A stretch of 53,729 nucleotides of DNA from Pelomyxa schiedti (GCA_020536535.1 JAHLWZ010000290.1:3171-56899); one strand, 5' to 3'. Counted from the stretch's first letter, positions 1 through 30,169 are shown. The notes: generated by a model from the letters alone, not told the origin. Numbers and translations are program-made.

Positions 1-537
1 TTCATGCCTGTAGAGCAATCTCAGATATACTCGCTGAGCTGCAGAGACTAAATGAATACTTCATGACTACTTACAAACTCACTTTGGAAATTCGTATTGG
101 AGTATGAGAACACTCATTCATGCTGTGAAACAGTAACAAATTCAAAGGTGCATTCAGGAGAGGTGCAAGCAGGAAATGTTGGTTCTTCACATCGGCTGAA
201 CTACACAGTCCTCGGTTTGTAGTCAACTTTTCAAATATTCCAGTGAAGAAAGCTGCAGGTAATACTGTCAACTTGGCTAGCCGCCTTGAGGCTGTGAATA
301 AAGAAGTTGGGACCCAGGTGCTAGCCTCAAATAGTTTCCGGAGTTGCGCCGGTGGCGATTTTGCTTTCAGAGCACTGGGTTCGATATCTGTAAGTAACAT
401 TTTCCTTTCTCTTGAGACTTACTTGTGACAAGGTCAGAGGATTCCAAGACCTCGTTCTCGTTCATCAGTTCCTCGGTGCTATGGATAGGTCCGACTTTTT
501 TTTCCCCTTCAGCTCTCCTAACCAAGAACAGGCTTGA
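1..537 (+). CDS. C-terminal part of a class III adenylyl/guanylyl cyclase catalytic-domain gene; the 5' end lies upstream of the window. Exons are approximately 1-101, 148-214, 259-389 and 433-537.
   Basis: The spliced translation ...LEIRIG|VHSGEVQAGNVGSSHRLNYTVLG|NTVNLASRLEAVNKEVGTQVLASNSFRSCAGGDFAFRALGSIS|VRGFQDLVLVHQFLG...stop reproduces the cyclase homology motifs RIGxHSGxVxAGxxG, LxGxTVNxASRxE and GxIxVxG. Donors are GTATGA, GTTTGT and GTAAGT, acceptors are AG, and phases are consistent. Confidence 0.7.
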
Positions 538-792
538 CCCAACAACGAAACAACTCCTCAAAGACTATCTGGAAATAGATAAAGCCTTATGTGAAGGACA
601 ATCCAATATCGACCCTATGATTGCATCATTTTTGGAAGTACACCCTGAGGATAAAACAGTGTCACTTGCACAGAGCTACCAACAAACACACAAAGATCGA
701 TAAAGAACGGCAACAAAATAAATATCAACGTCACTCATGGTTTGCCCGGAACATCGAATAAACCTTCAACCGGTTGTTCACGAGTCTGCGGA

Positions 793-2058
793 ATGACGAG
801 TGACAACGGAATACCGATAAGAGCTACATGGAAAATCGACGCTCGATCGCAGTTCTTGGCTTTGGCGTGTGGTGCCACGGCCTCTGGTCGTGGGCCAGTG
901 AGCCTGCTGTCAAACGCTTTCGAAGTGTTGGCCTACGAAATTGGCCGCAAGTGGGTAGTAAGTTGCTCGCGCCGTTGGGGATTCGGCGTGGGGGAGGGAC
1001 ACAGCAAGGACGAGATTCCGTGTGGTGATTGCTGCCTTGTGGTTTTCTTTGGAGTGTCGCACACGCTGGGGCTTGTGTGGCACAAGTTGCACCTGTTTGG
1101 CGGCTGTAACTTTGGGGCCTCCAAGCCCTGTGCAAACGGAATGCAGATTGGGTGCTACTTGGGTAGCTCCAAGTGGATGTCCTATCTTCCTTGGGCTGTC
1201 GACAGGGATGGCGCCTTTGTGATGAATGAAGATGACGGCAGGATCGTCGGGCGAATTCGTGGCTCAGTATCCACCTTAAACTGGGTCGAAAGCTTCCATA
1301 GCAACGGCAAGTGGCTCGTTCAGATTTGCAGAAAAAGTAAAATGAGAGTGTGGCGACTTCGTGAGGGTGTTCCTGAGGGCCATTGTGTGCTTATTCGGAA
1401 CCGTCCTGACCACAGAATTTTTGGCACACGTTTCCTGCCTTGGGGCGATGAGAATGAAGTTGTTGTGGTTTCTCAGTCGAAAGAGAAACACGCTTCAGAC
1501 CTACTATTTGTGGATCTTCAAACCAGCGTCTTCAATGAGGCGCTGGTCGTGACCAGCAGTATTTCAGTTCCCTACGAGGCAGACGATATACTGTGCCTGC
1601 CACGTCAGGAATTCCTAGTACTATCGCGGGATTTTTCGATTGAAATGGGGTTCCGCAGGTTTACATACAACACTTTGACCCGGCGACTGTTCTACTTTCC
1701 GGGAGACGTTCAGTTTGTACCGCCGTCACACGTGCTCAACAGACCCCGCCTCGATCATAATTGTAGGATTTATGCTGCCTCCGACCTGGGTCAACCTTTG
1801 CGCCAGTTTCAACAACATGGGTGCCAGCATCCATTTTTCAGAATGACCACAACAGACCGCTGGATCGCAAATGGCGATCCTTCTGTCTCCCTGAATGTCT
1901 ACGACTTGGTCACAGGCACCACCGTGCTCACACTTACTCGCACATTGAAGAGCCCAGGCGTAGCAGGCCAACATTCAGGGGAGACGATACCACAACACCA
2001 CAGCCCACGCCCCCGGTCCCCTCCTTGGCCCCCTGGAACTCCTTGGCTCCACTTCTGA
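793..2058 (+). CDS. Intronless 421-codon ORF, hypothetical protein; moderately GC-rich (~53%) compared with its surroundings.
   Basis: A long uninterrupted frame (track ORF 742..2058) with its first ATG at 793 and sense-like codon usage. I recognise no domain. Confidence 0.35.
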   Translation: MTSDNGIPIRATWKIDARSQFLALACGATASGRGPVSLLSNAFEVLAYEIGRKWVVSCSRRWGFGVGEGHSKDEIPCGDCCLVVFFGVSHTLGLVWHKLHLFGGCNFGASKPCANGMQIGCYLGSSKWMSYLPWAVDRDGAFVMNEDDGRIVGRIRGSVSTLNWVESFHSNGKWLVQICRKSKMRVWRLREGVPEGHCVLIRNRPDHRIFGTRFLPWGDENEVVVVSQSKEKHASDLLFVDLQTSVFNEALVVTSSISVPYEADDILCLPRQEFLVLSRDFSIEMGFRRFTYNTLTRRLFYFPGDVQFVPPSHVLNRPRLDHNCRIYAASDLGQPLRQFQQHGCQHPFFRMTTTDRWIANGDPSVSLNVYDLVTGTTVLTLTRTLKSPGVAGQHSGETIPQHHSPRPRSPPWPPGTPWLHF

Positions 2059-2231
2059 GCATCGTTTACAGGACGAACACAGGGAATTTCCTCAGGAAAA
2101 GTTGGTTTTTACATGTGCAGGCGCTGTTGTTTTCTGAGCCCAAAAAAAAAAAGCCCTTTCCAAAAACCAGTACTTTGTTGTCTTCAAGATTAAATTGCAT
2201 GTCCCCCAACTATTGAGGCCACGGTAAGGGG

Positions 2232-2890
2232 GCCAGCCTTGCACTCCAGTAGCATTCCGTTGAACGTGAGTTGGTGATTGGAATTTGCATGAATGTTCTA
2301 TTGTCATTTTCAAGAAAGGAGCAACGGTTAAGAAAGAATGAAAGTGAGTGATAGGTTTACCTCGTAAAGTTTCTCCACAAAGTCTATTGTAATTTGGGGT
2401 TCTGGATCGGCCATAACACAATTCTTGAGTACCACTCTATCACCAACAGTGCAACCAGCAGGGGGGTCAATAAGCTGAACGACCCTGGCGTGATCATGCA
2501 GCTCCATTCCGGTAAGCTTTCCGCTTGATTTTTGCCCTTGAAGTGTTATTTCCTTGATGTTGCATGTAACAACAACAAATCGATTCTGAAAGGGATTGTG
2601 AAAAGAGAATAGGCGGAGGGATGGGAATACCCTTAGGTGATCGATATTTGGTATATGTTCCACAAGTGCACTTACAATTTGTCGTCTTGAGGTTCCTAAA
2701 TCCACATCTTCCATGTATAATCTTCTTGATGTGAGCTTGGTAATAGAGACAGCGATGATACTTACTTGGCAGAATTTGGTACACGTTTGATGGACAGTAT
2801 TTTTCCGATACGAAGCTCAAGTTTACTGAAATCAAGGGCAGATACTTCACTGCAATCAATACAACATGAAAGTACTGTTTTGTCACATAC
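2232..2890 (-). CDS. tRNA-binding (EMAP-II/Myf/Arc1p-type OB-fold) domain protein, multi-exon. The main exon is about 2362-2728.
   Basis: The minus-strand translation ...EVSALDFSKLELRIGKILSIKRVPNSAK | LYMEDVDLGTSRRQIVSALVEHIPNIDHL...RFVVVTCNIKEITLQG...ARVVQLIDPPAGCTVGDRVVL matches the AIMP1/p43 and aaRS C-terminal tRNA-binding domain pattern (LDxRVGxI...DVGE..RxIVSGL..H.....NRxVVxxCNLK...G..S.GMxLCA...P..G..VGDRVxF). A GTAAGT donor follows SAK and a GTAAAC donor follows LYE. Confidence 0.55.
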
Positions 2891-3179
2891 GGTATTGGTC
2901 CATCTTATTTAACTTCAGCCAGTATAAGTTTCCAACTGAATCACCAGCCACGAGAGGGATATTGGAGCCTCCATATTGGTCAAAAGGTTTGCTGCACAAC
3001 ACTTCCATCGAGAGAATGGAGGTAGGAAGATAGAAACAGTGCACTTCGTGACCACTGAAAACATCCTAGTTGGTGAATTAGAGACTCAGCATCACCTATC
3101 TAGTTTGGAACAAACCCAAATCCTGATCGTCTTGTCACTTGAAGATGAAATGAGGAATGTTGAATTCTGACCTAAGATA

Positions 3180-6100
3180 AGTTATCATTTTGATTTAGAG
3201 ACAGGAAGTCGTTACTGAAAAAAGCTAAGGCAGTAACTTCGTGAGTGTGTCTACGTATAATTCGCAACAGAGCTTTTTTGATTACATCCCATATACATAT
3301 GGCCTGATCTTCACCACCACTTGCAAGAATCCTTCCTGAGTCCAAAGTTAAAGGTGGACTGGAGTTTTGATAATGGACAGACCATCTGGTGAGAATTTAC
3401 AAGCAAGTAGCCCATCTTTGTGTGCTGTTAAATTAGCCTGGTTCTCACCAGAACGAGTGTTCCAAATCTTAAAGAAATTTAGAATTATCATGGACTGAAA
3501 ATAGTACCTTCACTGATGCGTCTTTGGATCCAGTAGCCACCAATTTACTTTTGGGAGAAAAGTCGATGGTGCTTATCCAGCCAGTATGCCCGGATAGTGA
3601 TCCGACTTCTTCTCCTGCACGAACCAGATTAGTATGTTCAGGCATTGTTATTGGGGTACACCAAACCATTTTCCAATGACCAAACTTTTGCTGTACGATC
3701 AACACTTCCTGTGACAGCATATCTATGATGGGTGTGCGTAAGGGAATTAATCCAAAAGAAAAGAAACCTTCCGTCGTGGCTTATCGCACAGGCAAATATA
3801 GGTAGTGTGTGTCCCTCAAGTGACATGGCTTCCTCTTTTGACTGTTTAAACCAATCAATGGAAAGGTATGGTCTGAAGGGTTATTACCTTAACTTCCCAG
3901 ACTTTTGAAGTGTTATCACTTGAAGAAGTTAACAACATTGAGCCATTGGGTGACAGAGCAACGGCGTTTATCTTTAAAAGTTATAACCAAACTACATGTA
4001 AATTGTTAGATACCCTCTTAGGATGTGAGAAAGTAGCCAGTTCACGGCCTTGCTCATCAAAAATTTTTGCTTGCCTATCCCAGGAACCTGATGCCACCAG
4101 ATGTGCCGATGGAGAGTATGATATTCCTTTCACCATTGCTGTGTGCTCTGATGTAGAGCCCTCTGACCCACCAGATAATGTATCAGCTAGAGAATAGAGT
4201 CTATTAGACTTGTCAGTACAGAGGAAATAGCAAGTGGCCAGGTGGTACCTTATAGACATATCTGCAGAACCGGTGACAAATAAGTCACCTTTCGGTGAAA
4301 ATGCTACCGTGTTGATAAAATGGGAGTGCCCTTCCAGAGTTGCCACTTCTTCACCTGTGTTGGTGTTCCAGATCTTCGCTATCTTATCAAATGAGCCGGT
4401 GAGCAAGTAGTTTTGATCACTGGAAATATCACAGCAACTCACACTTTTTATTGGTCAGCAAAATAGAGGGAGCAGTACAGGAAAACCTTTGTGTGTGTCC
4501 TGTCATAGTTTGTGCTGGAGCAGACCTGGCAATATCCCATTTTATTATTGATCTGTCAGTGGATACAGAGAACAGATATTTACTTCCAAAGAAAGCCAAG
4601 TCCTGTTAAAAATTTTAGTGCATGGTATACGTGGTTGTTAGTTTACTTTGGCGTATTTATTGTGTCCCTTTAAATCGACAGCAGGCTTAGAAGAATTTGA
4701 TGTCCAAGTGCCATTGTTAACTGTACAGTGGAGCAGTCGGACATTTTTATCATTAGATGTGGTTGCTAACATGCTGTACAATAGATTAGAAGGATCTTTC
4801 TATAATGGAACAAGTACCTTCCAGATTCGTGGAATTTTATGGAAGTTACTGACGAGGTATGGGGTTTCATAGTGATCAAAGGAGAAAGGGACTTGGCAGG
4901 AGGAAGGGGAGAACTAAATACAGCGATACTTCCATCTTCATAACCAACACCCATAACCCAAGTTCCTGATGCACAAAATGCAGTACAACACGTGGCTTCT
5001 TGGATCTCCGGACTGTGCGGCAGTTAAATTCACGGACAGGACAAGTATGATTAGTACCAGGTGAGTGTTCCAATAACTGAGGATGTTGATATTTGCCAGA
5101 TCAGAGCGGAGCCATATTTATAAGCAACAAGTAGATACTTTGATGACATAAAGCAGCATTGGTTTGCACTTCCAGCTTGTATACCAAATGCCCCAGGATC
5201 AAGATTACCAAGTTCGGTGCATGTACTAGTTTTCCATATCTTTTTATAATTGTAACTTTTTTGGTGAAAAAAGAAGAAAGACCTTGGTAATGCCATTTGT
5301 CTTATAGGTGGAAGCTATAAGTAGTCCATCTGGGTCAAACTGGCAATTTAAAACCTATTTGAAGAAGTTGCAAGTCTACTCCACACAAAGAAGTTTACCT
5401 CACTGGGACCAGCCATAACTCCTCGGTGCTTACTATGTCCTATCAAACGTTTGTTTTCCCAAACAAAGTAGGGAGAATGTTGTAAGGTCAGTAATGAATT
5501 GCCGGCTGCAGAAACAATGGAGTTATCAGCACATGCTGCTGCTTGTTGTATCACAGTGGCTGGGTGATCTGTAAGAGCCGTGATATTGAGCATAACAAAT
5601 TTCCTGTAGCCTGTAAAAATACACAGGTACTCAAATGAGATGGTACTTGAAAGCTTGAAGTTTTTCGGTCAAGAATTCATTTGGAATCATTGTAAAATCT
5701 TCCACCAAACTCGCGGCCATCCCAAGAGAACATTTAGCGGAAACAAATTGAAGGTCACCCAGAACCATTTCAAGTTCAGACCATGACTCTGAACAAATGT
5801 TTAGGCTATCTAGGATGAAATGGGGAAAAAAAAAATACTTACGTGCTTGAATCAGATGATATGGTAACTCTGAAAAAGCATGCGGGTTGATAGCATTCCA
5901 TTTACCATCGGACTGAGCTTGGGTCTTGAAAAATTGAGCAAGCTGCCCATGTGTCCTGATGGCGGAATTACCTCCGAGGTATCTTGTTTGAACTGTCCCA
6001 TATTAGCTACTGGAGTAGTGTTATAAAAGAATTACCCGCTTTAGCAAGCTGCTGGTGAAAGAAATCAACTCGACCCTCATTGTTATTGCCCACTGGCCGA

Positions 6101-8384
6101 AGAAGCGATTTTAAGCCCAAAAATACTCCTGTCCATTGTGCAGCAGTTGCATTCATGCAATGGATGATATCTGATACAAAGAGGCCATGTCTTGCACACC
6201 GCAAGAGTGCTAAAGTAGTTCCAACAATTTTCTCCCCAAGATCAATCTCCAGCCTCTTCAAAACGACCTGAAGTAATTCTACAGCAAGTTACTGTTACAT
6301 TCCTTTCAGGGCACACGATACCTGGGATGGTTGGGGGAAGACCCGAAATGAAGTCGTGCAGTTTCTCAAAGGCACCATATATCCGAAGCTCCTCACATGA
6401 CAGAACTAAATACAAGGGGTTCCCACTTCCAGGTTTTTGGAGGAGGGTATTCATCTGGCTCGAGTCCAACTTTTTACCGAATTCAGAAAGAATCTGTGTA
6501 ACAATCTCCTGCCTAAATTGTTCATTACTCAAACGACAATTTTCACAGGTGAGAACCTGTCTTCTGTGGTGAGGGGTGGTACTGGAATTTCAGGGGCCTT
6601 CCTGGAATGTAATTGATCAAGACAATCTCCAGGCAGGCATGATAGCACGATTTTCACCTTGGAGAGTCATTTACATACATAGAGTTAAGAATTCTCACCG
6701 ATTTTGGCAGAATAGAAGGAATCCAACCAAGGCGGTGACTATTATTTGTATCATCAAGCTGATTAAGTGCATCAATTATTAAAAGAAGGTGCTCCCGCTC
6801 TCCCGAAACCTAGATTGGTGTAAAACACTCAAAGTGATACAGTGTATCAACCAACCCGGTGTAGAAGTTGTAACCACGTAGACTCCAGGTCGGAAAATTC
6901 CAGGGGGATCTCAACGTCTAAGGAATAATGCGATGAAAGCTCCGCACATAGACGGGATAACACTTTTGTGATGTCAGTGCTATTAGGACTTCCTCCCACA
7001 AAGTGAGGAAGTACAAAGAACTCTCTATCAGCCATTGTCAGAGGTTAGATGATTACGTAGAAAATTAACCGGTTGTTAAGTTTCTGTTGGTGTGCAAAAT
7101 GAGCCAGTAAGGAACTTTTACCAGATCCAGGTGAGCCAACAACAACAATTGGCTGACTTTGATTATAGTCTTCAATGTAGGTGTTTAATTGCTGTAATAG
7201 TTGCGATCTGCCAACAAAGTTTCTACCCCTTATCTCAATGAATTCATCGTGATACGCTCTATGAGGTAGTGAGGAACGTCACAGAGAAAAAAAAGGGGAT
7301 GTGACCTCTCAATGGACATAGGTGTTTGCTTGACAGAACTTTTTGGAGCACATTTCTCGATTCCCTGCCAAACAGCAGATTCAAATTGCTCAAGCATTTT
7401 TTCCAAGCCGGACAGTTCAACATTATCATCAGTTACTCCTGTGTAGCAGAAAATGAGTGGGACGCTGAGTTTTCAGTGGGGAAAAAACACCTTCGTAGCA
7501 AGGAGTGTAGTGATAAACAGTCGAGGGAAATTTGTCATTGATAGCTGCTTTGAGTTGAGCCATGCGCTGCACTTTATTTGGGACTTCATCTTTCCACTGA
7601 GCTTTGATCTATATTTTGTTGGAAGGAATTGTACTTTTATTTAAATGACTACTTACAGACTCAGGTAGTCGGTCAAGAAATTCAGGGTCCCTAAAGAAAA
7701 AGATATTGCTATGTGCAGTGTCCTTAGCTTTCGCAATGGCGCCACATTGAACCTTTTCGTATTAATATATTAAACAAAAAAACGAGTCTACCTCCATAGC
7801 AGTTACACTGAGACCATTTTGCCAAGTAAATTTGACTTTGGCTTCATCTGGTACATCGTGGGGGTCTGGGATCCAGCCATACCTTTCTCCAAGTAGTCCC
7901 ACGAAGATGTCACAAGTGGAAGCGCTCTCAAGGCACATATTAATAACCTGCTTTGACTTGGCATCCTCTTCAGTAATTCCCCATCTAGGCAAAGAAAAAA
8001 GGACAATTTAATCTAGCAACTCGGCCAGTTGTTTCTACCGCAGATCAATGTCAATAAGATGAATTTTCTTTGCAAGACAGCGCTCTCTCAGACGTGGAAT
8101 GATCTGAACAACAGGTTAAAGAGCAATTTAGTAGTTGCAAACCTGCTTAATTAGTAGGTCACGCTCAGTATTCATATCCACAAATGTAGAGGACAGGAAC
8201 AATCTCAGAGTACGCCATACAGAGGGAGCTTCTGAAATACAGTTACAGTTACACTTGCAAGTGCAGAGGTGATTAATATAGTACCTTCATCATCTGAGAC
8301 TCGAGATATCTGTTCCTTGGCGCCAGTGAAGAAGAACCCTTGGAATGGATTGGTCTCTTCGACTTCATCATCAGGGAAACTCAT
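3180..8384 (-). CDS. NWD1-like NLR gene with DUF4062, NACHT NTPase and C-terminal WD40 repeats; many short introns.
   Basis: Minus-strand exons read ...MSFPDDEV...SDDE|EAPSVWRTLRLFLSSTFVDMNTERDLLIKQ|IIPRLRERCLAKKIHLIDIDLR|WGITEEDAKSKQVINMCLESASTCDIFVGLLGERYGWIP... (DUF4062). They are followed by ...|AYHDEFIEIRGRNFVGRSQLLQQLNTYIEDYNQSQPIVVVGSPGSGKSSLLAHFAH... (Walker A/P-loop, exon 7258..7057). Helical-domain ORFs follow at 6007-6532. WD40 repeats run from 5600 to 3290 (...IAKIWNTNTGEEVATLEGHS..VAFSPKGDLFVTGSADMS...; GRILASGGEDQAICIWDV). Introns are 48-52 nt GT..AG with consistent phases. Confidence 0.8.
7057..7258 (-). other. NACHT P-loop (Walker A) exon of the NWD1-like gene.
   Basis: It encodes QPIVVVGSPGSGKSSLLAHFAH. 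The exon runs from acceptor ctcatag| to donor |gtaatc and has no start codon, so it is absent from the ORF track. Confidence 0.8.
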
Positions 8385-8409
8385 TAATTCTAGACTACAG
8401 CCAGTTGAG

Positions 8410-8425
8410 AAAAAAAAAAAAAAAA
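8410..8425. repeat. (A)16/(T)16 homopolymer in the 150-bp spacer between the ankyrin gene's stop and the NWD1-like gene's start.
   Basis: Direct reading of the sequence. Confidence 0.9.
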
Positions 8426-8530
8426 GGTGCTTGAATTTCACCTGGAGCCAGAAGGGGTGGAAGCTTTGCTTTCAGCTCCCTGTGAAATGAGAAATTGCAC
8501 CAATGCTGGGGCTTGGGCTGCCTAATAACA

Positions 8531-11500
8531 TTACTCGTGGGTTAGCAACAACTCTCTAGATACTTGGGCCATTTGAAGTGGGGTACAAGCTCCACTCTTC
8601 TTTACCACAGAGTTGACATCGGCACCATATCTAACTAAAATCTTTGCCACATCCACATAACTAGAAGTTGTTAGAATTTCCCAAAAAGAGACAAGTGTAC
8701 CCCTTTGATGAAGCCAAATGTAGGGGTGCCATCTTCTTTTTGTTAAGCATATCCACAGTGGCTCCCTGCTGAATCAGTACTTCAGCAACATCAGCCATTC
8801 CAGACTGAGCTGAAATTGATGAGGAAATTAAGGAAAAGTGCAAACCCACCTGCTATGTGCAGTGCAGTATTCCCAAAATCATTCTTGGAATCAATTATTT
8901 TCTTCGCCCCAGCAACTTTGGCTAGGACTTTAACAACTTCTTGGTTATCTGAAGGAGTGTGAAACAAGGTATTTCTCCCAATGTGTGACCTTTTTCATGG
9001 ACTGCAACATGAAGAGGGTTCTGCCCACCAGAATTTGAGATCGTAACATCGGCGCCATGATCCAAAAGTAACCGAACCTAAAAACTTGAGATAGAGGAGA
9101 ACATGGAAAAGCTACCATCTCACAGTCACAGTTAGCAGAGGCAACGTGAAGAGGTGTAGAACGTGTGACACTCTTTTCCGCGTTGGTAAAATACAAGAAG
9201 GCATTATTGTACCGGTAAATTTGGGTTGGCACCAGCTTTTAGAAGGAGCTTAACCTGATTCATATTTTTATTTTCTGCTGCAACATGGAGTGCACTATGA
9301 CATATTAAAAAGAAAAGAAAAGAATATTATGACTGAACGTGGACTCAGAGCCAAAATCCAGTATTTGCTTTGAAAAACTTGCGTTTAGAAGAGATTCCAT
9401 CAGTTCATCATTACGGGTTTGGGCCGCTGAAGAGGCATAAAACCAAATCCTTTCATTTTCACATCTTAAAAGCTAACCTATGTGTAAAACCGTATTGGAA
9501 CCACGGCTGAACATATTAGCCAATACTGCAACATCTGCAAGTAGTTAGTATTTCCCTTGCTTGGGATTAGACGGACCAAGTGATAAAAAGGACTGCACAG
9601 ATTCTAGTTTGCCCGAGGTGCATGCTTGGGAAAATGCTCGTGCCAGATTTGGGTCGGGTGTTTTTGATATGCTTGCCTATTGGATGTTAGTTGGGACGTC
9701 TTATTCTTTTTTAACATACTGTAAATAGATTAATAGTATCTCTGTTGCCACTTCGGGCAGCTACTTCAACAGCCTTAATGAAGGTGAATGTCACAAGGAC
9801 TTTGGATAACAACATACAGTAGCGCCATTCTCGTTTGCGAAAGGATTAGCCCCTGAATCTAGTAATAGCTTGGCAACACTTGCATGACCGCCTGCACAAG
9901 CTAGTCCAAGGGCACTAGATCTATTTTAGATGTTTGAAATAATGCACCAGGCAAGTCGTAGACCTCTGTGGGCCAGAGGCATTTGAATTTGTTGCCACCA
10001 TTGTGGCTCCATAAGATAATAACAGTTTCGTAAGTGGAGCATTTCTTAAGGGTGTTACTAACTGGATCACAAAGTAATAAGTTCTACCCCTTGATTGCTG
10101 CAACATGCAAAGGTGTTTGGCCATTTCTGCGTGTATTTATGGCATTTGGATTGCCTCCTAAACCTAGTATTAGTACGGCAACTTGTTCACTTCCACGTAA
10201 TGCTGCAATATGCAGAGGGGTCTATGGAGATATTAGTTATTACTCATGAACTCTGAGGGAAGAACCTGTTGATGAAAGTTGTAGACAGAGCAATCTAATT
10301 TGCCTTCTTTTATCAGCCAGGAAGCAATTTCTGGACGATCAAACCAGGCAGCTACATGCAGTGGCGTCCACTTTCCCGACCAAGGGAAAGTTTTGCTTGG
10401 AGCTGCAGTCAGGGTGGCAAACTGTGCTACTGAGGTGGCTCCAACTATGCGCTGGAGGTCACTAAGCTTTCCTATGATGACGTCAACAGGGCATCCACAG
10501 TTACAAGACACTACCTTTCTCAATGGAGGAAAAGAATCTCGATACAACAGCTGGTGCCAAGCTTGAAGATGACTTGAATTCAGTTAAATCGGTTGGTGGT
10601 GGTGTCACCGGGCGTGATGATGTGGGTGTTGTTACAACTGGAGTCGAATCTGGCTGCACTGTTGGCGTGGATGGAGGTGTTACTGGTCTCACAGGTAAGT
10701 CCACTTGCTGCTGTTGAGGTGGTAGTGGTGGCGTTGTTACAGGTGGGGGTGTGCTTGGCTTTGATGGAGGGGTGATTTGAGTAGTAGTAGTACATGAAAC
10801 CGTTGGTGCTGGAAGCACCTTAACGGATGGGGAAGGTGCAGAAGCGGTAGTAGTTTGTTGTTGCTGCAAAACTGGCTGCGAAGCTGGAATGGGGGGTAAT
10901 GGCACAGGTGTTTTATTTGATTTGGAGGCCAACATAGACCAAGAACAAGATGGCTTTGGAACCACAGGCTCAACAGGAGGCAATGAACTTGGCAGGGGTG
11001 TTGGTTCCACAACCACAATGGCAACAGAAACAGAAGCAGAAGTAGAAGAAGTGGTAATTGTGGAGGATACAACATCAGAACCGATCGTCCCAGATTCTGC
11101 AGCACTGATCAGTGTTTTGCGTTTCCCATAACGCGATGCCGACCCCAAGCTGGGTGTCCCTGTTTTTTTTGCCGAGGACACTGTAGTTGTCAGTGTAATT
11201 CCCTCGTCACGAGACGGTAATGATAGCGGGAGAGCATTTTCCTTGGGCGTTTGCGTGGGACACGGGTGTCCCACGTCTTTGGGCTCAGAAGCGCACACAT
11301 TGGGCTGCGAAATTTGTTGCCGAGGATGTTGGCGTCGAGGAAATTGATGTGGGGGCTGAGGGATTGTGGGGTCGAACAAAACTTTGCTTGGCGACACCGC
11401 TCTGGGTCGTCGTGGTACTTTTCGGGCTGCATTCGTCCCGACACTTTTTGAGGGTGCAGGAGCTGATGAGGGGGCAGGCCGATTGCCTAAGGAGGCGGAC

Positions 11501-11541
11501 AGGAAGGGGTTACTTTGTGTGAGGGTGCTGAAGAACTGCAT
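8531..11541 (-). CDS. Ankyrin-repeat protein with a long Ser/Thr/Pro-rich low-complexity N-terminal region; multi-exon.
   Basis: The S/T/P-rich ORF at 10501..11601 has its first ATG (MQFFSTL..) at 11541 and ends at the donor GAGAAAG|GTAGTG. Downstream, several ANK repeats are encoded at 10547-8531 (TPLHVAAWFDRPEIASWLIKEGKLD; TPLHVASANCDCEMV; MAPLHLASSKG|YVDVAKILVRYGADVNSVVKKSGACTPLQMA...stop). Confidence 0.65.
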
Positions 11542-11881
11542 CGTCCCTTGGGTAGAAGTGATGATAAGGGTTTTTTCAACTTTTGTTTCGGGGAGCTCCA
11601 CTCAAACGGTGAGAAAGTATAAAAATGAACGGGTTTGAGTTTGAAACACGGCTGGTGACATTCCGGTACACGAACGGAAATGCACACAGATACACGTGTC
11701 TGATGGATCTGCTATGTGGAGAAACCAACTTCTGGCAGTTTGTTCCTTACATCAATTTCTGCCGCCAGAATCAAAAGACGAGGAACCGAGGAACCCTCAG
11801 GTTTCAGCTGTTACAGGAACGTTAGAAGCAATCACTTCTCCGGAAGACCACTCCACAGTTCATACAACATAGTCAACTGAC

Positions 11882-12521
11882 ATGGGGACCGTATTGGTCA
11901 AGTTATGGCGGTTTGAGTTCACAAGGAAGAACATGAAAATAGTGGTGCTGGGTCTGAATGGCGCTGGAAAGACAACAATATTGAGGCAATTGCAGATGGG
12001 CGAAATAGCGACCACTACTCATGGAGGTGGTTTCGAGGTGGAGACCGTTGCATTCAGGAGCCTCACCTTCAACGCGTGGGATGTTAGTAACGAAAATGTG
12101 ACAATGCTCTGGAGACAGGTACTACCTTTCCCTCAACAGAGACTACAATGTAATGCCGCAATACATGAACACACAGAATAAGATATCAATCAAATGCTAA
12201 TTTGCTAACCACACCTGGCAGTATTTCCAGAACACACAAGGAATCATATTCGTAGTTGACACGACGGATCGTCCGCGGATCACAGAGGCCTGCGACGCAC
12301 TCCGCAGAATTCTCGCCGAAGACGGTCTCCGCAACGCCGGGCTTCTGATTTTCGCCAACAAGCAAGATATGGCCAATGTAATGAGTGTGGCTGAGATCAC
12401 CCAAAAGCTCGACCTTAACTCCCTGAGGAACCGAAGGTGGTTCGTTCAGGACTCATGTGCTATTTCTGGCGACGGGCTCTACGCGGGCCTCGACTGGCTC
12501 TCCCATAATCTCGGGGACTAG
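11882..12521 (+). CDS. ARF-like small GTPase (ARL family); 2 exons, join(11882..12118,12222..12521), 178 aa.
   Basis: Exon 1 is [36 protein letters not shown]...[16 protein letters not shown] with a GT donor at 12119. Exon 2 follows the AG at 12220-21 and reads [20 protein letters not shown]...[19 protein letters not shown]...[22 protein letters not shown] stop. The G1 (GxxxxGKT), G4 (NKQD) and G5 (SCA) motifs are present. Confidence 0.9.
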
Positions 12522-12640
12522 TTGTACCCTTCACTACTACTACTACTCCGTGCCCCAGCATGCCACATCACCTAATTTATGTCCGTTCGTTGTACAAAAA
12601 AAAATAAAAACCAAAGCACAAACGAGAAGAAGAGAGGGCA

Positions 12641-23077: not shown

Positions 23078-25560
23078 ATGGGAAATAATCAGTCTCTGAA
23101 ATTGATGTTTCTCACCAAACCATATCTTGAAAAAGGGAGTGTTCTTGCCCCTCAACTTCTGGAAAGCAATGTCCAGATGAAGCAAACTATTTTCACACTA
23201 CGGCCTAGAACAGATGATGTTGATATGGTAACTGCACGACGTAGTAAGATATTGACACCTAGATTTCAATCTTATCCATTTATTTTTGGTCTGCATCACC
23301 TATGTAAATTACCAGCCCACACATTATATCTAGGAAAAGTACTACATGTTGTGGGCCATGTTGAATGTGGGTGCGCGGAAGGTACTGATCCTCGATTTAA
23401 GGAACCTTACCAACTCTGTCCTGACACCCATGGCACATTATACTTTTCGGACTACTCTAACAAACGACTTTGTGTGCTGTTCCCAGACAGTATTTTTTTG
23501 GCAACCCTGATGCTGCCTAACAGCAATTAGGAAATTTAAACATAATAAAAACAAATCTTGGACGTATATATGGCATGGCCCTTTCGAAAAATGCTTTAGC
23601 ATATAGTGAGCGTCATCAAATAAAAATCCTGGAGCTAGGTTGTAGACCAGAAATTGTAGCTCATTAACTTGCCTTAGATAAACCTGATCTGGACCCACTT
23701 ACCATAGGTGATAAAATAGGGTCCACAGATGGGCCTTTGATTGATGCACTGTTCACACGGCCCTCTGCATTAACATTCGACTACAACGGGAATTTATGGG
23801 TTGCTCAAAGTCACACAAAGTCTGTGCGAGTTATTGTGTTTTCAGCAGGTATGCATGTCCCAGTAAACATTGCGTCACTACAGCAATTACCCAGAGAGTG
23901 TTTTTACTGTTCTCGTTTTTTCTGAGCCACCTACTGCTCTATGCTGTGACAAACACAATAACCTGTACATTGCAGTTGGAAATCGGATTTTGAAAGCCCC
24001 TCTCAATTCTGAGCACACTACATGTTTCATCCTCTAAAATAACATTGCCTCTTCTAAATCAACAAAAGCACCTCCACTTCTGCTGTGTGTTCTTCCACCA
24101 CCTATCAGTTACATATATTCAATGGCCGTTACCGATGAAGATAGGCTTCTTTTTACATGGGGTGACAATATTCTCATGCTTCCTACACTTGGCGGACAGT
24201 GCGGGTCTGAAGGACAAACAGCCCATACAGAGAGTTCAAGAAGAGCCAGTTACTGTGACGTTGTTGATGGCATTTCTACAGATGATATTTGCTCACCTGT
24301 AATTGTTGTTGGTGGAGGAGCCGATTTTCAGGGTGACCCCTATGGTGCACACCCCCTTAATATCAAGCTTCGACGGCCTCGTGGTGTTGCAGTTGGATGC
24401 AGCAGTGGTGAGATATATATTTCTGACAACCACAGGATAATGTGCTTAGTGGAGATGAAGGTATCAGGCTGTTTGTATCTGGTCACCTTCTGAGAGTTCC
24501 TCAGGTATCTGCAAAATCAAAACATTCAGACCTACCTGACGTAATGATCTCCCCTCACTGTGTGTACTCTCATATGTTGAATTTAATAACAAAATGGCTA
24601 GTGAGAAAAGCATTTGAGCAATTGCCTCTGGTGAGGTTGTTTGGCATTACGTCTCCGTGTCGGTTTGCTGAACACATGATGGGCATTCTCGGTTCCTGTG
24701 TTTTCAAGGAGGTGGAAAACTTGTATTTCTTTTGCCAATGCGTGAGAGAGCCACCATTGGATGCACTTGCATTGGTCTTGCAACGATTCATTTTTGACAT
24801 TTTCCCCTGGTTGTTCAAGGTATATCCAAATACTACGTATCCCAGAGATACACTCGTCACCAAGGCGCGCGACTGTTCCAACGATTCACATCGACTCATC
24901 GTACAAGTTTGCCACAACATAATAAGCCAGACAAAATCCGCAACAGATCCGCCGGCCTCGTCAGTGGCAATAGCACACCTTGTTTATGGTTTCATACATC
25001 AAGAAGGACTTGGTGCACAACAAGACTACACCACAGCAGCAAGACACTTCTTGATTTCTGCACAGTTGGGAAATAGCCTGGGTAATTATTATATTGCCAC
25101 ATGCTATTTTCATGGACATGGTGTGTCACAACAGCTAAGGGAGGGAGTGCGGTACCTACAGCTTGCTGTTCAACAAAATAACCCCATTGCTCAAAGTGAC
25201 CTAGCATATTGTTACCGCACAGGATATGCTGGTGTTGAGCTGAATCTATGTGAAGCTGTGAGATTGTGGACCATATCTGCCGGCCAAAGCTGCCCCATTG
25301 CCCAAAACCAACTTGCATTGTGTTATGAGGAAGGCAAGGGTGTTGATAAGAACATAATGCAAGCAATTACCCTCTATGAAGAGGCAGCTTATTCGTTTCA
25401 ACTCCCCGATGCACAGTTCAACCTCGCTGATTGCTTTCTCAAAGGAGAAAAGCTAGGGATACTTCAGGACATGCCCAGGGCAGTGGCATTGCTTGAACAG
25501 GCCAGAGCACAAGGGCACAAGAAGGCCACAATAAAGCTGAAGAGGCTTGGAGTTGGATGA
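23078..25560 (+). CDS. NHL-repeat plus Sel1-like-repeat protein with an N-terminal MGNNQS (myristoylation consensus); multi-exon.
   Basis: Starts MGNNQSLKLMFLTKPYLEK.... NHL-like units are present (..GTLYFSDYSNKRLCVLFPDS; FDYNGNLWVAQSHTKSVRVIVFSAG; PRGVAVGCSSGEIYISDNHRIMCL). The 3' exon 24442..25560 carries at least 5 Sel1-like repeats (GNSLGNYYIATCYFHGHGVSQQLREGVRYLQLAVQQNNPIAQSDLAYCYRTGYAGVELNLCEAVRLWTISAGQSCPIAQNQLALCYEEGKGVDKNIMQAITLYEEAA...). Confidence 0.6.
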
Positions 25561-25814: not shown

Positions 25815-27918
25815 TCAAGAATATTTCACCCGTAGGATGCACATAGGCCTTTCCTCACGAGGGACCAACATCCAAGCCCTGTCATAAGCCTTGTAGTACT
25901 TGTCTAGGACTGAGTGCTCAATGGCGGGAGTGTGTTTGACAAGCGGGCGATTTAATGTGCATTTTGTTCCGTCACAGCACCTGTAAACATTGCCACACAC
26001 AGTGCAAAAGTTACGTGACATCCAAACAAAAGATACATGTTTCCACTTTTATGTATAAACAAGGTAAAGGCAAGAAAAAAGGATCATAAGGAAGGTACCT
26101 TGGTTTGGTCACAATCTCCTCCAATCTCATTCAAAAAGTGGCTCAAAACTGATCTTGCATTCTTAGACCACGTTACACTGCTGTTCAACAATGCTTGCTA
26201 GTTTTGTGACTCAGTGGGTCGGTGGAACAGATGAGAAAAGCGCACCTTCCAACAGGAACTGGAACGCCCTGCATGGTACCTTTTTTTCGAAAAAGAAGGT
26301 TATTCACCCGATATTGTGGGTGATATGATGGCAAACCAAAATCGGGAAGTCCGTTGAATCCTCCCAAGGGCTTGCACATCAAGAAGCGCCAGCACTCCGG
26401 CAGTTTCGGCTTGATACAGTGCTGCCATTGCTGTGATGGAATCATCGATCCTGATGATCTCGTTACAAAATTGTTCTGAAAATACGGAGTTTTACTCAAT
26501 AGATGCAGAAACCATCTGTCGTGTATCTATGGCCCCACTTGGAGGCACCTTCTCGAATTCCATGACAGGCATGGATGCACGTAGCGCGTCCGTTGAGCCG
26601 ATAATTTCTGAATATTTTGACACTGAGATGGACCCCACAGCTTGATTTGGGAACAACTTCCAGTATCCTGACGTGGTGTGTTAAAAAAGAAAAAAAAACA
26701 AAAATGCAAGAAATTGCAGATACCGTGGATGTGATCGTACTCTGAACTCTGATAGTGCTTCCAGAGGTCACACTCTTTGTTTGGCAGAACTCCACCCAGT
26801 CTCACCATTTCAGCCACCAACTCACTTTGGTCCAAAATAACAGCAAGAATCATTGGAGTGAAAATTCCTTCATAACTACGAAGCTGGAAGCTGCAAGAAG
26901 CATTGGGATTCGCCCCGAGGGTTAAAAACTTCATTGCCAGCTCTCGCTGGTTTCTCAATATTGCCATGAAAAGTGGTGTTTTTTCATTTGCCGTCTCCGA
27001 ATTGAGGAATGCAGAGAAATTTGGATGATTGACGAGAATATCAAGAAGCTCCTTGTTTGTTGCACTCCAGCGCGGGTACTGTGTTGCGTTCACAAAAGCA
27101 CGGCCAAGGCCCTTGTGGAACACCTGACAGAGATACTGCAAAACATCTGGACGAGCTTCCTCACAACCACAGTACACTGCAATTGGCAGTTTGGCGTCAA
27201 GAGCCTCGATGAATTTATTCCCGCCCCACTTTTCATTCACCAGCAGTTGTATGACTTCCAAATTGTTGTTGTGCATGACCATTTCCAGGGGAGAGTCGGG
27301 CTGAGGGGGCGTTTTATTGAATAGCAAGGTAGCCTTAGTTGGAACATCAAAACGAGAAAGTATCATTCCAATGACATCCGGCTGTAGCTTACCAATACAC
27401 AAGTGCATAGCCGTGACCTTTCTGCCATCCACCGAGCACCACAACCCCGGATTTGCACCGAAGGGTTCCAGCAAGAATCTGGCCACTTCCACATGCCCCT
27501 CATACACAGCACAAGCAAATGCAGTCCCTTCATCCCACTGGTTCCAAGTGCACATGGAATCCGCCATCCGGGAGAAAAAATCTCGCCGGCAAGGCCTTTC
27601 GTGCCACGCATCGTGCACTATCTTCAGCTCCTCGAGGTGCCCGAGAACCGCGCATACGAACATGACATTGATTCGCACCAATTTTTTCGCGCCGTGGCCT
27701 GTTGACGTGTCTGGGACTTTGGTCTTGCACTCGAATGCCCCTGGTTCGTGGCCCACGGGTGTCCGAGCAGCCAACTTGGCCAATTTCCCAGGCCGCGCCT
27801 TGGCCGCGGCTGTGAGGAGCTTGTTGCCCTTCACAACCGAAATGAGGCTGGCTCGTTTGGCGGCATAATTTGCAGAGTGTTGTTGATTGTGGGTGTCGGT
27901 TCCCACTGTCTGTCCCAT
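25815..27918 (-). CDS. Ankyrin-repeat protein with an N-terminal MGQTVGT (Gly2 myristoylation consensus) and a C-terminal Cys-rich module; paralog 1 of a tandem pair. Six exons: join(27918..26724,26667..26496,26450..26337,26279..26246,26197..26099,26045..25815), 614 aa.
   Basis: Exon 1 is track ORF 26527..27918 (ANK repeats, for example TPLFMAILRNQRELAMKFLTLGANPNA). The other exons are ...DHIHG|(G)YWKLFPNQAVGSISVSKYSEIIGSTDALRASMPVMEFEKVPPSGAIDTRQMVSASI|(E)IDDSITAMAALYQAETAGVLALLDVQALGRIQRTSRF(W)|YHAGRSSSCWK|QALLNSSVTWSKNARSVLSHFLNEIGGDCDQTK|WKHVSFVWMSRNFCTVCGNVYRCCDGTKCTLNRPLVKHTPAIEHSV...KYS stop. All junctions are GT..AG and all phases close, and paralog 2 has the same exon pattern. Confidence 0.75.
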
Positions 27919-27998: not shown

Positions 27999-30169
27999 TC
28001 ATGACTGATCAGACATAGCATATCTGTCAAAAAACCCAGAAGGTGTCTCAACAACGCCTCCAAACAGTGAAAGAAACTCGGAGATCACTGCGGTCTTTTT
28101 TTCCTGAGGAACTACCAAACTCCAAGCCAGGTCATATGTCTGGTAGTATGTGTGAAGGGCTGGGTACTCAATGGCGGGAGTGTGACTGACACGCGGGCGA
28201 TTTACTGCGCATTTTGTTCCATCACAGCACCGGTAAGCATAGCCACACCCCGTGCAATAGTTCCGCGCCATCCAAACAAAAGATACATGCTTCCACTTGG
28301 GTGTTTTTCGAATGTTAAACACCAGGGAACAGTACTAGAAGGTACCTTGATTTGGTCACAATCTTCAATCTCATTCAAAAAGTGGCTGAAAATAATCCTT
28401 GCATTCTGAGACCACGTCGCACTGCTGTTCAACAATGCTTTCTAAGGTTTTTTTTTTTTGTTTTTGGTTTTTTTTGTGCTTCGCCAAACCGTTGGAAAAC
28501 ATACCTTCCAACATGAATTGGAACGCCCCACATGGTACCTTTTTGAAAAATGATTATGTTTTTGATGTTACAATGAAGGAGCATAAACCAAAATCGGGAA
28601 GTCTGTTGAATCCTCCCAAGGGATTGAACATCAAGAAGCGCAAGTACTCCGGCAATTTCAGCTTGATACAGTGCCGCCATTGCTGTGATGGAATCATCGA
28701 TCCTGGCAGAACAGTTATTAGTGGTTCTCAAAATCTCGGAGTTTTACCCAACAGATGCAGAAACCATCTCTCGTGTGTGTGAAGGCAGTTTCTCGAATTC
28801 CATGACAGGCATGGATGCACGGAGCGCGTCTGTCGAGCCGATAATTTCTGAATATTTTGACACTGAGATGGACCCCACAGCTTGATGTGGGAGCAACTTC
28901 AAGTATTCTGATGGGTTTGTTAAAAAAACATAAAAACGAAAGGAAATTACAGACACCGTGGATGTGATCGTACTCTGAACTCTGATAGTGCCGCCAGAGG
29001 TCAGAATTTTTACTTGGCAGAACTCCACCCAGTCTCGCCATTTCAGCCACCAACTCACTTTGGTCCAAAATAACAGCAAGAATCATTGGAGTGAAAATTC
29101 CCTCATAACTACGAAGCTGGAAGCTGCACGGAGCATTGGGATTTGCCCCGAGGGTTAAAAACTTCATTGCCAGCTCTCGGTGGTTTCTCAATATTGCCAT
29201 GAAAAGCGGGGTTCTTCTGTTTTCAGTCTCCGAATTGAGGGACTCGGTGAAATTTGGGTGATTGACGAGGATATCGAGAAGCTCCTTGTTTGTTGCACTC
29301 CAGCGCGGGTACTGTGTTGCGTTCACAAAAGCGCGGCCAAGGCCCTTGTGGAACACCTGACAGAGATACTGCAAAACGTCTGGACGAGCTTCCTCACAAC
29401 CACAGTACACTGCAATTGGCAGTTTGGCGTCAAGAGCCTCGATGAATTTATTCCCGCCCCACTTTTCATTCACCAGCAGTTGTATGACTTCCAAATTGTT
29501 GATGCACATGGCCATTTTCAGGGGAGAGTTAGCCCCAGCGGACGTTTCACATAGCAATTTAACTCTGGCTGGAATATCGCAAGCAGATAGAATCATGTCA
29601 ATGACATCCGGTTGCAGCCTCCTAATACAGAAATGCAGAGCCGTTAATTTGTTACCTAGCTTGTCACCGAGCACATCGCACTCCAACCGCGGATTTGCGC
29701 GGCACTTTTCCAGCAAGAATCTCGCCACTTCCGCATGCCCCTCATTCACAGCACAAGCAAATGCGGTCCCTTCATACCACTGTCTCCAAGTGCACATGGA
29801 ATCCACCAACAACACAGAAAAAGTAGTTTTGTCCTCCCAACAGACCCTTTCGTGCCAGGCATTGTGCACTATTTTTAGCTCCTCGAGGTGTCCCAGAGCA
29901 GCGCAAACAAACATAAGATTGAGTCGCACCAATTTTTTCGCGCCGTTGCCTTTCGACGTGTCCGGGATATTGTTCTCGATCCGACATGCCTCTATTTCAT
30001 GGCCCACGGGTGTCCGAGCAGCCAACTTGGCCAATTTCTCAGGTTGCGCCTTGGCCGCGGCTGTGAGGAGCTTGTTGCCCTTCACAGCCGAAATGAGGCT
30101 GGCTCGTTTGGCGGCATAATTTGCAGAGTGTTGTTGATTGTGGGTGTCGGTTCCCACTGTCTGTCCCAT
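27999..30169 (-). CDS. Paralog 2 of the N-myristoylation-motif ankyrin / Cys-rich family, a tandem duplicate of 25815-27918; multi-exon. Exon 1 is 30169..28957; the terminal exon ends at 27999.
   Basis: Track ORF 28718..30169 (MGQTVGTDTHNQQHSANYAAKRASLISAVKGNKLLTAAAKAQPEKL...). It is about 85-90% nucleotide identity to paralog 1 across exons, with divergent introns. The terminal exon reads ...WKHVSFVWMARNYCTGCGYAYRCCDGTKCAVNRPRVSHTPAIEYP.... Confidence 0.7.

Follow-up and report, generated by a model that had tools for sequence, protein, structure and literature searches.

A supposed ankyrin and NLR gene pair of Pelomyxa schiedti is very probably one 51-exon gene of TEP1/NWD1 type

In the genome of Pelomyxa schiedti, an anaerobic amoeba of the Archamoebae, a region had been read as an S/T/P-rich ankyrin gene followed on the same strand by an NLR gene. 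Our analysis indicates that the supposed pair is a single gene of 51 exons, and this explanation as a whole, including the mechanism proposed below, is considered very likely to be correct. The gene lies in a window of 53,729 nucleotides (GCA_020536535.1 JAHLWZ010000290.1:3171-56899), which is the whole stretch of DNA that was analysed. The same-strand reading was borne out, as coding is on the minus strand throughout the interval, and so were the tiny introns of about 50 nt, whose sizes range from 38 to 63 nt with a median of 44. In the curated model, the start codon is ATG 11541-11539 and the stop codon is TAA 2192-2190. The product is a 2,366-residue STAND/NLR-type ATPase of the TEP1/NWD1 clade in which an S/T/P-rich region is followed by ankyrin repeats (ANK), an acidic linker of about 50 residues, DUF4062, NACHT, an APAF1-like helical domain, WD40 repeats and a tRNA-binding domain. 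The gene structure, this domain order, its retention in relatives and the presence of the catalytic Glu were established in the analysis. The ANK-to-tRNA_bind architecture is undescribed, yet it falls within the known TEP1/NWD1-type group.

Table 1. Features of the gene and its upstream region (positions counted from the first letter of the window)
Feature	Coordinates	Strand	Evidence or remark
Divergent upstream region, 340 bp, common to the gene and an ARF-like gene (+ strand)	11542..11881	.	Gene models
Complete CDS	2190..11541	-	Curated model; 51 exons, 50 GT-AG introns, 2,366 aa
Exon 1, S/T/P/Q-rich low-complexity N-terminal region, residues 1-~342	10515..11541	-	Long open frame
Ankyrin-repeat region, residues ~378-812, 15 small exons	8468..10367	-	Pfam Ank_2 286 bits, Ank 222 bits
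42-nt intron, CTAAC branch-point-like motif	8522..8563	-	Contains TAA 8533-8531
47-nt junction intron GTGAAA...CTGTAG	8395..8441	-	Splice PWM, shuffles, GenBank junction peptide
T16 on coding strand, (A)16 on + strand	8410..8425	-	Read directly
ATG, internal Met825	8382..8384	-	Alignment to relatives
DUF4062, TIR-like NADase domain, residues 862-1073	7353..8220	-	Pfam PF13271, PDB 11gz_A
NACHT NTPase, residues ~1125-1285	6494..7152	-	Pfam NACHT, AAA_16
APAF1-like helical domain, residues ~1461-1546	5528..5882	-	Pfam APAF1_C 35.2 bits, cut-off 22.8
WD40 propeller region, residues ~1590-2193	2910..5354	-	Pfam WD40 300 bits, 9 stretches
46-nt intron with apparent NLR stop TGA 2885-2883	2845..2890	-	Spliced out in RNA contig L001
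EMAPII-type tRNA-binding OB-fold domain and true stop, residues ~2200-2366, 4 exons	2190..2844	-	Pfam tRNA_bind

The two signals that had separated the genes both fall inside introns. The ankyrin stop placed at about 8531 is contained in the 42-nt intron, the removal of which restores the final ankyrin repeat in full (TPLQMAQ/AAQAPALVQFLISQGAE), and the spliced sequence is found in the GenBank protein KAH3764373.1. The unspliced frame ends instead at TGA 8440-8438, so that the gap to the proposed NLR start at about 8384 is 53 nt rather than about 150 bp. This gap is itself the interior of the junction intron, and the mature message has no spacer. Excision of the intron, of which the TGA forms bases 2-4, joins ...STPSGS/SLELMSFPDDE... 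in frame. Its splice PWM score was 12.7-12.9 bits, compared with a median of 10.3 bits for the 44-45 other introns, and few controls offered an in-frame, stop-removing intron as good as this one (exon decoys, 1.3%; 5,000 dinucleotide shuffles, 1.2%). The (A)16 tract attributed to the spacer is real, but it lies within the junction intron, where its coding-strand T16 serves as polypyrimidine tract; stretches of T, up to 10 long, are present in further introns of the gene. Because splicing joins both sides in frame, the ATG, although present at 8384-8382, is not a gene start but codes for an internal methionine. This residue aligns to M in the P. schiedti paralogue, V in Mastigella and C in the relative's genomic contig L002, so it is not a conserved start, although it could in principle serve as the start of a shorter isoform.

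The reading with two genes, in which the ankyrin gene would end at TGA 8440-8438 or TAA 8531 and the NLR would begin at ATG 8384 by way of a polycistron, read-through or a buried promoter, draws on features that are visible in the unspliced DNA. An in-frame stop stands 53 nt before an ATG whose -3 position is A, and the T-rich tract with AG behind it looks like an acceptor for trans-splicing. However, the stop belongs to a high-scoring in-frame intron, Met825 is not conserved, and the frame is continuous in the public model and in three relatives, one of them a transcript and one a single genomic exon. Trans-splicing is nowhere named (0 occurrences) in the P. schiedti genome paper. A polycistron is recognised by cistrons with their own start codons and an intercistronic region that is kept after cis-splicing, and this was not what was found. 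The mature message also has no second gene start, contrary to the proposal of two genes that are co-transcribed or share an insulated promoter. The 53 nt would leave no room for both the end of one transcription unit (3′ UTR and terminator) and the promoter of the next, and the 340-bp divergent region would be the sole evident place for a promoter of the whole gene. Separate genes are thus regarded as very unlikely. Under the single-gene explanation, transcription of the whole gene would begin from the divergent region at about 11.55-11.88 kb, and the fifty tiny introns would then be removed from the message.

The junction is also bridged in proteins from the same and related amoebae. The GenBank entry KAH3764373.1 (Pelomyxa schiedti, 2,287 aa) is already one protein, named TEP1, which contains the exact junction peptide ...ESKASTPSGSSLELMSFPDDEVEE... 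and the C-terminal tRNA-binding domain; residues 129-2366 of our model are 99.55% identical to its residues 60-2287. Protein P0511 (2,111 aa), derived from a Trinity transcript of Mastigella eilhardi, aligns colinearly to residues 212-2363 (45% identity), and its Pfam order is ANK, DUF4062 (619-715), NACHT (872-1030) and a C-terminal tRNA_bind. Colinearity also extends to a paralogue within P. schiedti, KAH3743239.1 (2,188 aa), which shares 49% identity with the model. In L002, one uninterrupted exon covers the final repeats of the ankyrin array, the linker and DUF4062, and the spliced product gives a single HSP (E=2e-106, residues 617-1133) that spans the junction. A single longer ANK-DUF4062-NACHT-WD40 protein produced by an unrecognised splice, which the initial annotation had listed among its possibilities, is therefore the one upheld by the junction intron, KAH3764373.1 and the relatives. 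No P. schiedti RNA contig crossing 8441-8395 was found, and a protein search centred on the junction yielded no fragment from the same species, so the splice in P. schiedti rests on the predicted GenBank model and comparative evidence.

Because the P. schiedti assembly was derived from amplified single cells, as described in the genome paper, a fusion created by mis-assembly or by over-merged gene prediction was also considered. The GenBank model does have a dubious 5′ end and skips a 10-aa ANK segment. Nevertheless, the same order occurs in the independent Mastigella transcriptome, at the second P. schiedti locus and in L002, RNA contig L001 matches the window exactly, and the sequence is continuous, with no sign of an assembly break in the region read. 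An artefact of this kind is extremely improbable.

The S/T/P-rich ankyrin part was recovered as described, with a rich first exon (11541-10515) and ankyrin repeats after it. The 5′ end of the gene is uncertain, because the GenBank model begins in a different frame, at ATG 11432. A Pfam scan of the N-terminal 821 residues found no family except ANK, and the ANK region is colinear with those of P0512, P0511 and L002.

At the other end, the coding sequence runs beyond the lower bound of 3180 given for the interval, down to 2190, and this adds the C-terminal tRNA-binding domain (PF01588, 62.6 bits, cut-off 27; 75.4 bits in the Mastigella orthologue). Splicing of the intron at 2890-2845 joins the WD40 region to this domain (...NKMDQY/L/SALDFSK...). 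The Logan RNA contig L001 (SRR23919873) is 100% identical to the exons of the window, with 0 mismatches, and it further confirms the introns 3666-3615, 3507-3468, 3382-3336, 3215-3172 and 3115-3066 in the WD40 region and 2765-2722 and 2630-2586 in the tRNA-binding domain. The tRNA-binding exon lacks an ATG and is cis-spliced in the RNA, so the absence of a spacer here is not the mark of an operon. P0511, P0512 and P0513 have the same C-terminus as the amoeba protein.

The introns 8441-8395 and 2890-2845 thus each hold a TGA that mimics a gene end in unspliced DNA. This raises the question of whether they are retained in regulated isoforms of the one gene, which would add to the single-gene explanation. 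Since the TGA comes early in each intron, among its first 4-8 bases (GTGA 8441-8438 and GTATGTGA 2890-2883), retention of the former would give an 821-aa S/T/P-ANK protein ending in ...GSR*, retention of the latter would give a protein ending in ...DQYRM* that lacks the tRNA-binding domain, and either product would stop cleanly at a domain boundary. On the other hand, the sole RNA contig seen is spliced, and the tiny introns are full of stops, so chance alone would be expected to place one shortly behind a retained donor. Such isoforms are considered unlikely.

In the HMM search that the initial annotation had called for, DUF4062, NACHT and WD40 all passed the Pfam thresholds on the spliced protein of the single gene. 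NACHT scored 34.7 bits (cut-off 26.7) and AAA_16 scored 46.9 bits. A STAND/NLR-type NACHT is defined by a Walker A of the form GxxxxGK[ST], a Walker B of the form hhhhD[AG]hD[ED] and a C-terminal repeat sensor, and the protein has all three: Walker A GSPGSGKS (residues 1130-1137, 7137-7114), Walker B LLLIIDALNQLDD (residues 1216-1228, 6788-6750) and the C-terminal WD40 repeats. The TEP1/NWD1/NWD2/NPHP3 clade is defined by DUF4062 just N-terminal to NACHT, which here begins at NLR residue 301, and by an APAF-1-like helical domain after it; both are present. Several beta-propeller families were above the Pfam cut-off in the WD40 region, among them Beta-prop_TEP1_2nd (136 bits, cut-off 89).

The DUF4062 of human TEP1 is a TIR-like NADase with a conserved catalytic Glu (E1008 in TEP1, E97 in KpSwz), and its activity is lost in Ala mutants of R908 and R976, with R908A lowering it (bioRxiv 10.64898/2026.05.01.722283). 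The amoeba domain scored 48.0 bits for PF13271 (cut-off 24.7; residues 43-129 counted from the NLR start), and the human TEP1 TIR-like domain (PDB 11gz_A) aligned to NLR residues 38-249 with E=5e-38. The catalytic Glu equivalent is E973 (7794-7792, minus strand), where SVTEMEV of TEP1 aligns to SVTAMEV; the second Glu of the TEP1 motif was assigned to E1008 because of its spacing to R908, R954 and R976. The equivalent of R976 is kept (GERYG), but of three Arg residues lining the TEP1 active site two are changed: Val stands in place of R908 (STFVDM), also in the paralogue and L002, and Lys in place of R954. Human NWD1, NWD2 and NPHP3 have no NADase activity in vitro (bioRxiv 10.64898/2026.05.01.722283). 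With these changed residues and inactive human proteins, catalysis in the amoeba protein is not assured.

From APAF-1, TEP1 and bacterial DUF4062 proteins, we infer how the protein may work; by this analogy it may have NADase activity, a STAND-like activation logic and possibly an RNA ligand. The C-terminal WD40 region, perhaps with the ANK and tRNA-binding modules, would keep the NACHT module off. Triggered by a ligand, NACHT would then oligomerise, bring the DUF4062 domains together and so switch on NAD+ hydrolysis.

The amoeba protein shares with human TEP1 the core of DUF4062, NACHT, APAF1-like helical domain and WD40, and TEP1 likewise carries further domains before DUF4062 and an RNA-binding module (bioRxiv 10.64898/2026.05.01.722283). 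It differs in that its N-terminus consists of ankyrin repeats and a disordered region rather than TROVE/vWA, neither of which was found in the Pfam scan of the N-terminal 821 residues, and its RNA-binding-type module is the C-terminal EMAPII/tRNA_bind OB fold rather than an N-terminal TROVE. TROVE-bearing homologues are among the matches (P0109 lists PF05731). Human NWD1 and NWD2 have the same DUF4062-NACHT-helical-WD40 order, but as drawn in bioRxiv 10.64898/2026.05.01.722283 their DUF4062 is at the CARD-equivalent N-terminus and they have no ANK or tRNA-binding domain. The NWD1-like winged helix of Pfam (HTH_NWD1, PF25469) scored 15.4 bits in the amoeba protein, below its cut-off of 27. APAF-1 has the same STAND logic of effector, NOD, helical domain and WD40 propellers, but it has NB-ARC where the amoeba protein has NACHT, and a CARD effector in the place of DUF4062, and it lacks both ANK and tRNA_bind.

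In a large protein search, prokaryotic DUF4062-NACHT-WD40/TPR STAND proteins (such as P0001 from Methanoperedens and P0003 from Blastocatellia) scored highest among homologues of the DUF4062-NACHT core, being about 40% identical across >80% of 770 aa. In about 85 of the 112 scorable top matches, DUF4062 starts at residue 8-10, which leaves no N-terminal domain there. An N-terminal ANK was found in none of the prokaryotic homologues examined, P0097 having a C-terminal one, and the amoeba gene, unlike these, has 50 introns. In bacteria, DUF4062 is an NAD+-depleting executioner, for example in the defence system Swarozyc (bioRxiv 10.64898/2026.05.01.722283); PADLOC returned a weak Avs1b P-loop match and nothing more.

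The C-terminal ~165 residues match PF01588, as do EMAPII/AIMP1 and the C-terminal domains of TyrRS and MetRS, and they are 30-40% identical to many proteins with a C-terminal copy. In the amoeba protein, however, the domain is fused to the WD40 propeller of an NLR, and its sole close relatives (46-97% identity) are archamoebal NLR-type proteins. The Archamoebae may have a TEP1-like NACHT-driven TIR-like NADase in which the N-terminal TROVE was swapped for a C-terminal tRNA_bind, giving a tRNA- or small-RNA-gated, NAD+-depleting switch with ANK as a second sensor or docking surface, although we regard this as doubtful. If true, it would constitute an independent natural experiment, because RNA binding would then be essential yet replaceable in the control of the TEP1/vault NADase.

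The window is eukaryotic, and between 2.2 and 11.6 kb its coding sequence lies entirely on the minus strand, split into many small ORFs. The initial annotation read this region as an S/T/P-rich ankyrin gene followed by an NWD1-like NLR gene, with a spacer of about 150 bp between them, and offered as its second alternative a single longer ANK-DUF4062-NACHT-WD40 protein produced by splicing. The sequence features on which that reading was built were recovered, but its two-gene framing is refuted in favor of the second alternative: from the sequence, the ankyrin and NLR parts are predicted to be one gene. The S/T/P-rich ankyrin unit is present, with ankyrin repeats spread over 15 small exons after exon 1 (Pfam Ank_2, 286 bits). 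The proposed DUF4062-NACHT-WD40 order was likewise recovered when the spliced product from ATG 8384 was searched with Pfam HMMs; thresholds were passed, with scores of 48.0 bits for DUF4062 (cut-off 24.7), 34.7 bits for NACHT (cut-off 26.7), 35.2 bits for the APAF1_C helical domain (cut-off 22.8), 300 bits for WD40 and 136 bits for Beta-prop_TEP1_2nd.

Features of the minus-strand gene and domains of its predicted protein
Feature	Position	Strand	Details
Complete CDS	ATG 11541 to TAA 2192-2190	-	51 exons; 50 introns of 38-63 nt, median 44; 2,366 aa
Exon 1, S/T/P-rich	from ATG 11541	-	1,027 nt; curated model
Intron holding TAA 8533-8531	8563-8522	-	42 nt, GT-AG, CTAAC branch-point-like motif
Junction intron	8441-8395	-	47 nt, GT-AG; GTGAAATTCAAGCACC-T16-CTCAACTGGCTGTAG
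T16 run, (A)16 on + strand	8425-8410	-	read from sequence
ATG, NLR start of the initial annotation	8384-8382	-	read from sequence
S/T/P-rich region	residues 1-~345		
ANK	residues ~378-812		
Acidic linker	residues 813-861		
DUF4062	residues 862-1073		
NACHT	residues ~1125-1285		Walker A 1130-1137, Walker B 1216-1228
APAF1-like helical domain	residues ~1461-1546		
WD40	residues ~1590-2193		
EMAPII / tRNA_bind	residues ~2200-2366		

Splice sites were curated by hand from a reading of the minus strand. A naive spliced-ORF dynamic programme over-predicted: since any stop can be bypassed by an intron, each ORF was linked onward as far as the window edge, and the programme was kept for candidate introns only. 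A 29-nt intron at 6556-6528 was ruled out by the homologue alignment, the true intron being 44 nt (6556-6513), while the RNA contig L001 ruled out an intron at 3095-3055 in the last WD40 repeat and an acceptor at 2725, giving introns at 3115-3066 and 2765-2722. The resulting intron density is in line with the published genome of the archamoeba P. schiedti (52.4 Mb, 7.43 introns per gene, 98.4% GT-AG; PMC8887013).

The ankyrin stop had been placed at about 8531. A TAA is indeed found there, but it lies inside an intron, and once that intron is removed the final ankyrin repeat becomes whole (TPLQMAQ/AAQAPALVQFLISQGAE). After this removal, the unspliced ankyrin frame stops at TGA 8440-8438, only 53 nt, and not about 150 bp, from ATG 8384. 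This TGA constitutes bases 2-4 of the junction intron. The supposed spacer is an in-frame GT-AG intron, and its splicing gives the product ...STPSGS/SLELMSFPDDE.... In terms of splice signals, a PWM trained on 44-45 other introns of the locus (38-54 nt) gave the junction intron 12.7-12.9 bits, compared with a leave-one-out median of 10.3; an equal or better score was found in only 1.3% of GT..AG decoys within exons, and an in-frame, stop-removing intron of equal quality in 1.2% of 5,000 dinucleotide-preserving shuffles of the junction, although a PWM score by itself carries limited weight, as the true intron 2890-2845 ranked only eighth among the in-frame candidates between the NLR and the tRNA-binding domain. 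No P. schiedti RNA contig spanning 8441-8395 was found in a junction-centred search, and the splice at this point therefore rests on its signals, the predicted GenBank model and three colinear relatives.

Other ways of accounting for the stop were considered. Read-through of the TGA, or an alternative genetic code, was rejected because a TAG follows in frame after the T16 run beyond 8440, and several TGAs follow beyond 2885. The (A)16 tract is present on the plus strand as first described; an error in its length as the means of restoring the frame was ruled out because the stop comes before the tract. Operon organization or trans-splicing of the two supposed genes was also rejected. The ATG at 8384 exists, but its position (Met825) is occupied by M, V and C in the relatives and is therefore not a conserved start.

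The single gene also continues past the apparent NLR stop, TGA 2885-2883, directly after which lie exons for an EMAPII-type tRNA-binding domain (PF01588, 62.6 bits) that contain no possible ATG. An exhaustive search with this domain gave three informative matches, P0241 (97% identity), P0242 (53%, 609 aa) and P0243 (46%, 1,341 aa), in each of which the domain is preceded by WD40 repeats. P0241 is encoded on L001, a Logan RNA contig (SRR23919873, 949 nt) that shows 0 mismatches to the window and lacks the introns, eight of which are thereby confirmed. Among them is 2890-2845, whose excision takes out the apparent stop and joins ...NKMDQY/L/SALDFSK.... At the homopolymer 3274-3279 the coding strand reads A6 in the window and A7 in L001; this additional A disrupts the ORF of the contig, whereas the frame is intact in the window version. 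The locus illustrates a trap in intron-dense genomes with introns of about 44 nt, where one gene can mimic two or three tightly packed genes because a stop codon falls within the first few intron bases.

The search with the NLR core returned only homologues at about 40% identity or less, those with a named source being prokaryotic, and an identical protein was absent from its matches. The P0241 cluster contains KAH3764373.1, 'Telomerase protein component 1 [Pelomyxa schiedti]' (2,287 aa, from a 59-kb contig), residues 60-2287 of which correspond to model residues 129-2366 at 99.55% and include the exact peptide ...ESKASTPSGSSLELMSFPDDEVEE.... Its 5' end starts at ATG 11432, in a frame other than that of the 366-codon open frame, before switching to the long ORF (11157-11432). 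With a 68-nt intron at 9145-9078, the GenBank model also loses ASANCDCEMV (10 residues, region 9116-9145), which completes an ankyrin repeat and has a counterpart in a protein of Mastigella eilhardi. KAH3764373.1 thus looks wrong at the 5' end and in one ankyrin repeat, both of which the present model appears to correct.

The single longer protein is supported by KAH3764373.1 and by three colinear relatives. Two of these relatives came from the clusters of the other tRNA-binding-domain matches. The P. schiedti paralogue KAH3743239.1 (2,188 aa) is 49% identical and colinear with residues 205-2363. The Mastigella protein, from a Trinity transcript (2,111 aa), is 45% identical and colinear with residues 212-2363, and by Pfam it has ANK, DUF4062 (619-715) and NACHT (872-1030) in this order with tRNA_bind at the C-terminus. 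P0391, from the junction-centred search, is encoded on the genomic contig L002 (SRR28211867), in which a single uninterrupted exon encodes everything from the last ankyrin repeats through the linker to DUF4062; its spliced product aligns with residues 617-1133 in a single HSP (E=2e-106). L002 (1,712 nt) comes from an AT-richer organism with introns of about 52-56 nt and carries an orthologous ANK-DUF4062-NACHT gene. No NLR paralogues were found elsewhere in the window by tblastn. By these alignments, the predicted ANK-DUF4062-NACHT-WD40-tRNA_bind architecture is conserved in Pelomyxa (two paralogues), Mastigella and the L002 relative.

Several neighboring features were observed. A 438-codon ORF at 742-2058 (+), with no Pfam match, converges on the 3' end of the NLR gene, about 130 nt separating 2058 from the stop at 2190. 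Divergent from the same gene is an ARF-like GTPase gene at 11882-12522 (+), whose 103-nt intron (12119-12221) exceeds all those of the NLR gene in length; the G3 motif of the GTPase is WDVSNE in place of WDVGGQ, with loss of the catalytic Gln, and its best matches, many P. schiedti ARF paralogues among them, are only 47-59% identical. Two uninterrupted tandem paralogous ORFs with ankyrin repeats, at 26527-27918 (-; 463 aa) and 28718-30169 (-; 483 aa), share the identical N-terminus MGQTVGTDTHNQQHSANYAAKRASLIS, and their exact sequences were not found in the contig index. A Sel1-repeat protein ORF lies at 24442-25560 (+; 106 bits) and a DUF4185-domain ORF at 32587-33207 (-; 149.8 bits). Rfam and tRNA scans of the window gave nothing besides two U1 snRNA genes, at 51575-51736 (-) and 51875-52033 (+), which are divergent and about 140 bp apart (RF00003, 72.7 and 75.8 bits); the 5' end of one is the canonical AUACUUACCUG, and the other reads AUACAUACCUG.

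DUF4062 has recently been shown to be a TIR-like NADase, active in human TEP1 and serving as the executioner of a bacterial defence system, and in NWD1, NWD2, NPHP3 and TEP1 it adjoins NACHT and an APAF1-like helical domain (bioRxiv 10.64898/2026.05.01.722283). Judged by its sequence, the core of the amoeba protein is of this TEP1/NWD1 type. Its DUF4062 matches 11gz_A, the crystal chain of the TIR-like domain of TEP1 (E=5e-38). Judged by how the published residues are spaced, the catalytic E1008 is kept as E973, and R976 is kept, while R908 is replaced by Val and R954 by Lys. The DUF4062 of L002 shares the unusual STFVDM motif and also has Val at the R908 position. The TROVE/vWA module that defines TEP1 is absent, and the GenBank name therefore overstates membership. 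In the prokaryotic homologues DUF4062 usually starts at residue 8-10, and neither N-terminal ANK nor C-terminal tRNA_bind was seen; these two are additions to the core. PADLOC gave nothing significant for the amoeba protein, the one match being a weak Avs1b P-loop match. Outside the window, the eukaryotic homologue P0078 (EukProt tig00000880_g5213.t1) has a G-alpha domain (16-334) ahead of DUF4062-NACHT and so is a further case in which this core has gained a domain at its N-terminal side.

GenBank already lists the gene, with an automatically assigned 'TEP1' name, but its domain combination is undescribed: no description of N-terminal ANK or C-terminal tRNA_bind with this core was found in the literature searched. 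ANK, DUF4062, NACHT, WD40 and tRNA_bind together provide a new architecture for the newly characterised DUF4062 STAND family. Analogy to APAF-1 and to a model put forward for TEP1 suggests a mechanism in which the WD40 propellers would hold NACHT in check until a ligand released it, after which oligomerisation would cluster the DUF4062 domains and switch on NAD+ hydrolysis. The tRNA-binding OB fold, which parallels the TROVE module of TEP1, raises the possibility that this ligand is an RNA. Human TEP1 is an RNA-binding NADase, and a lineage in which a tRNA-binding OB fold may have taken the place of TROVE could help to test an RNA ligand.
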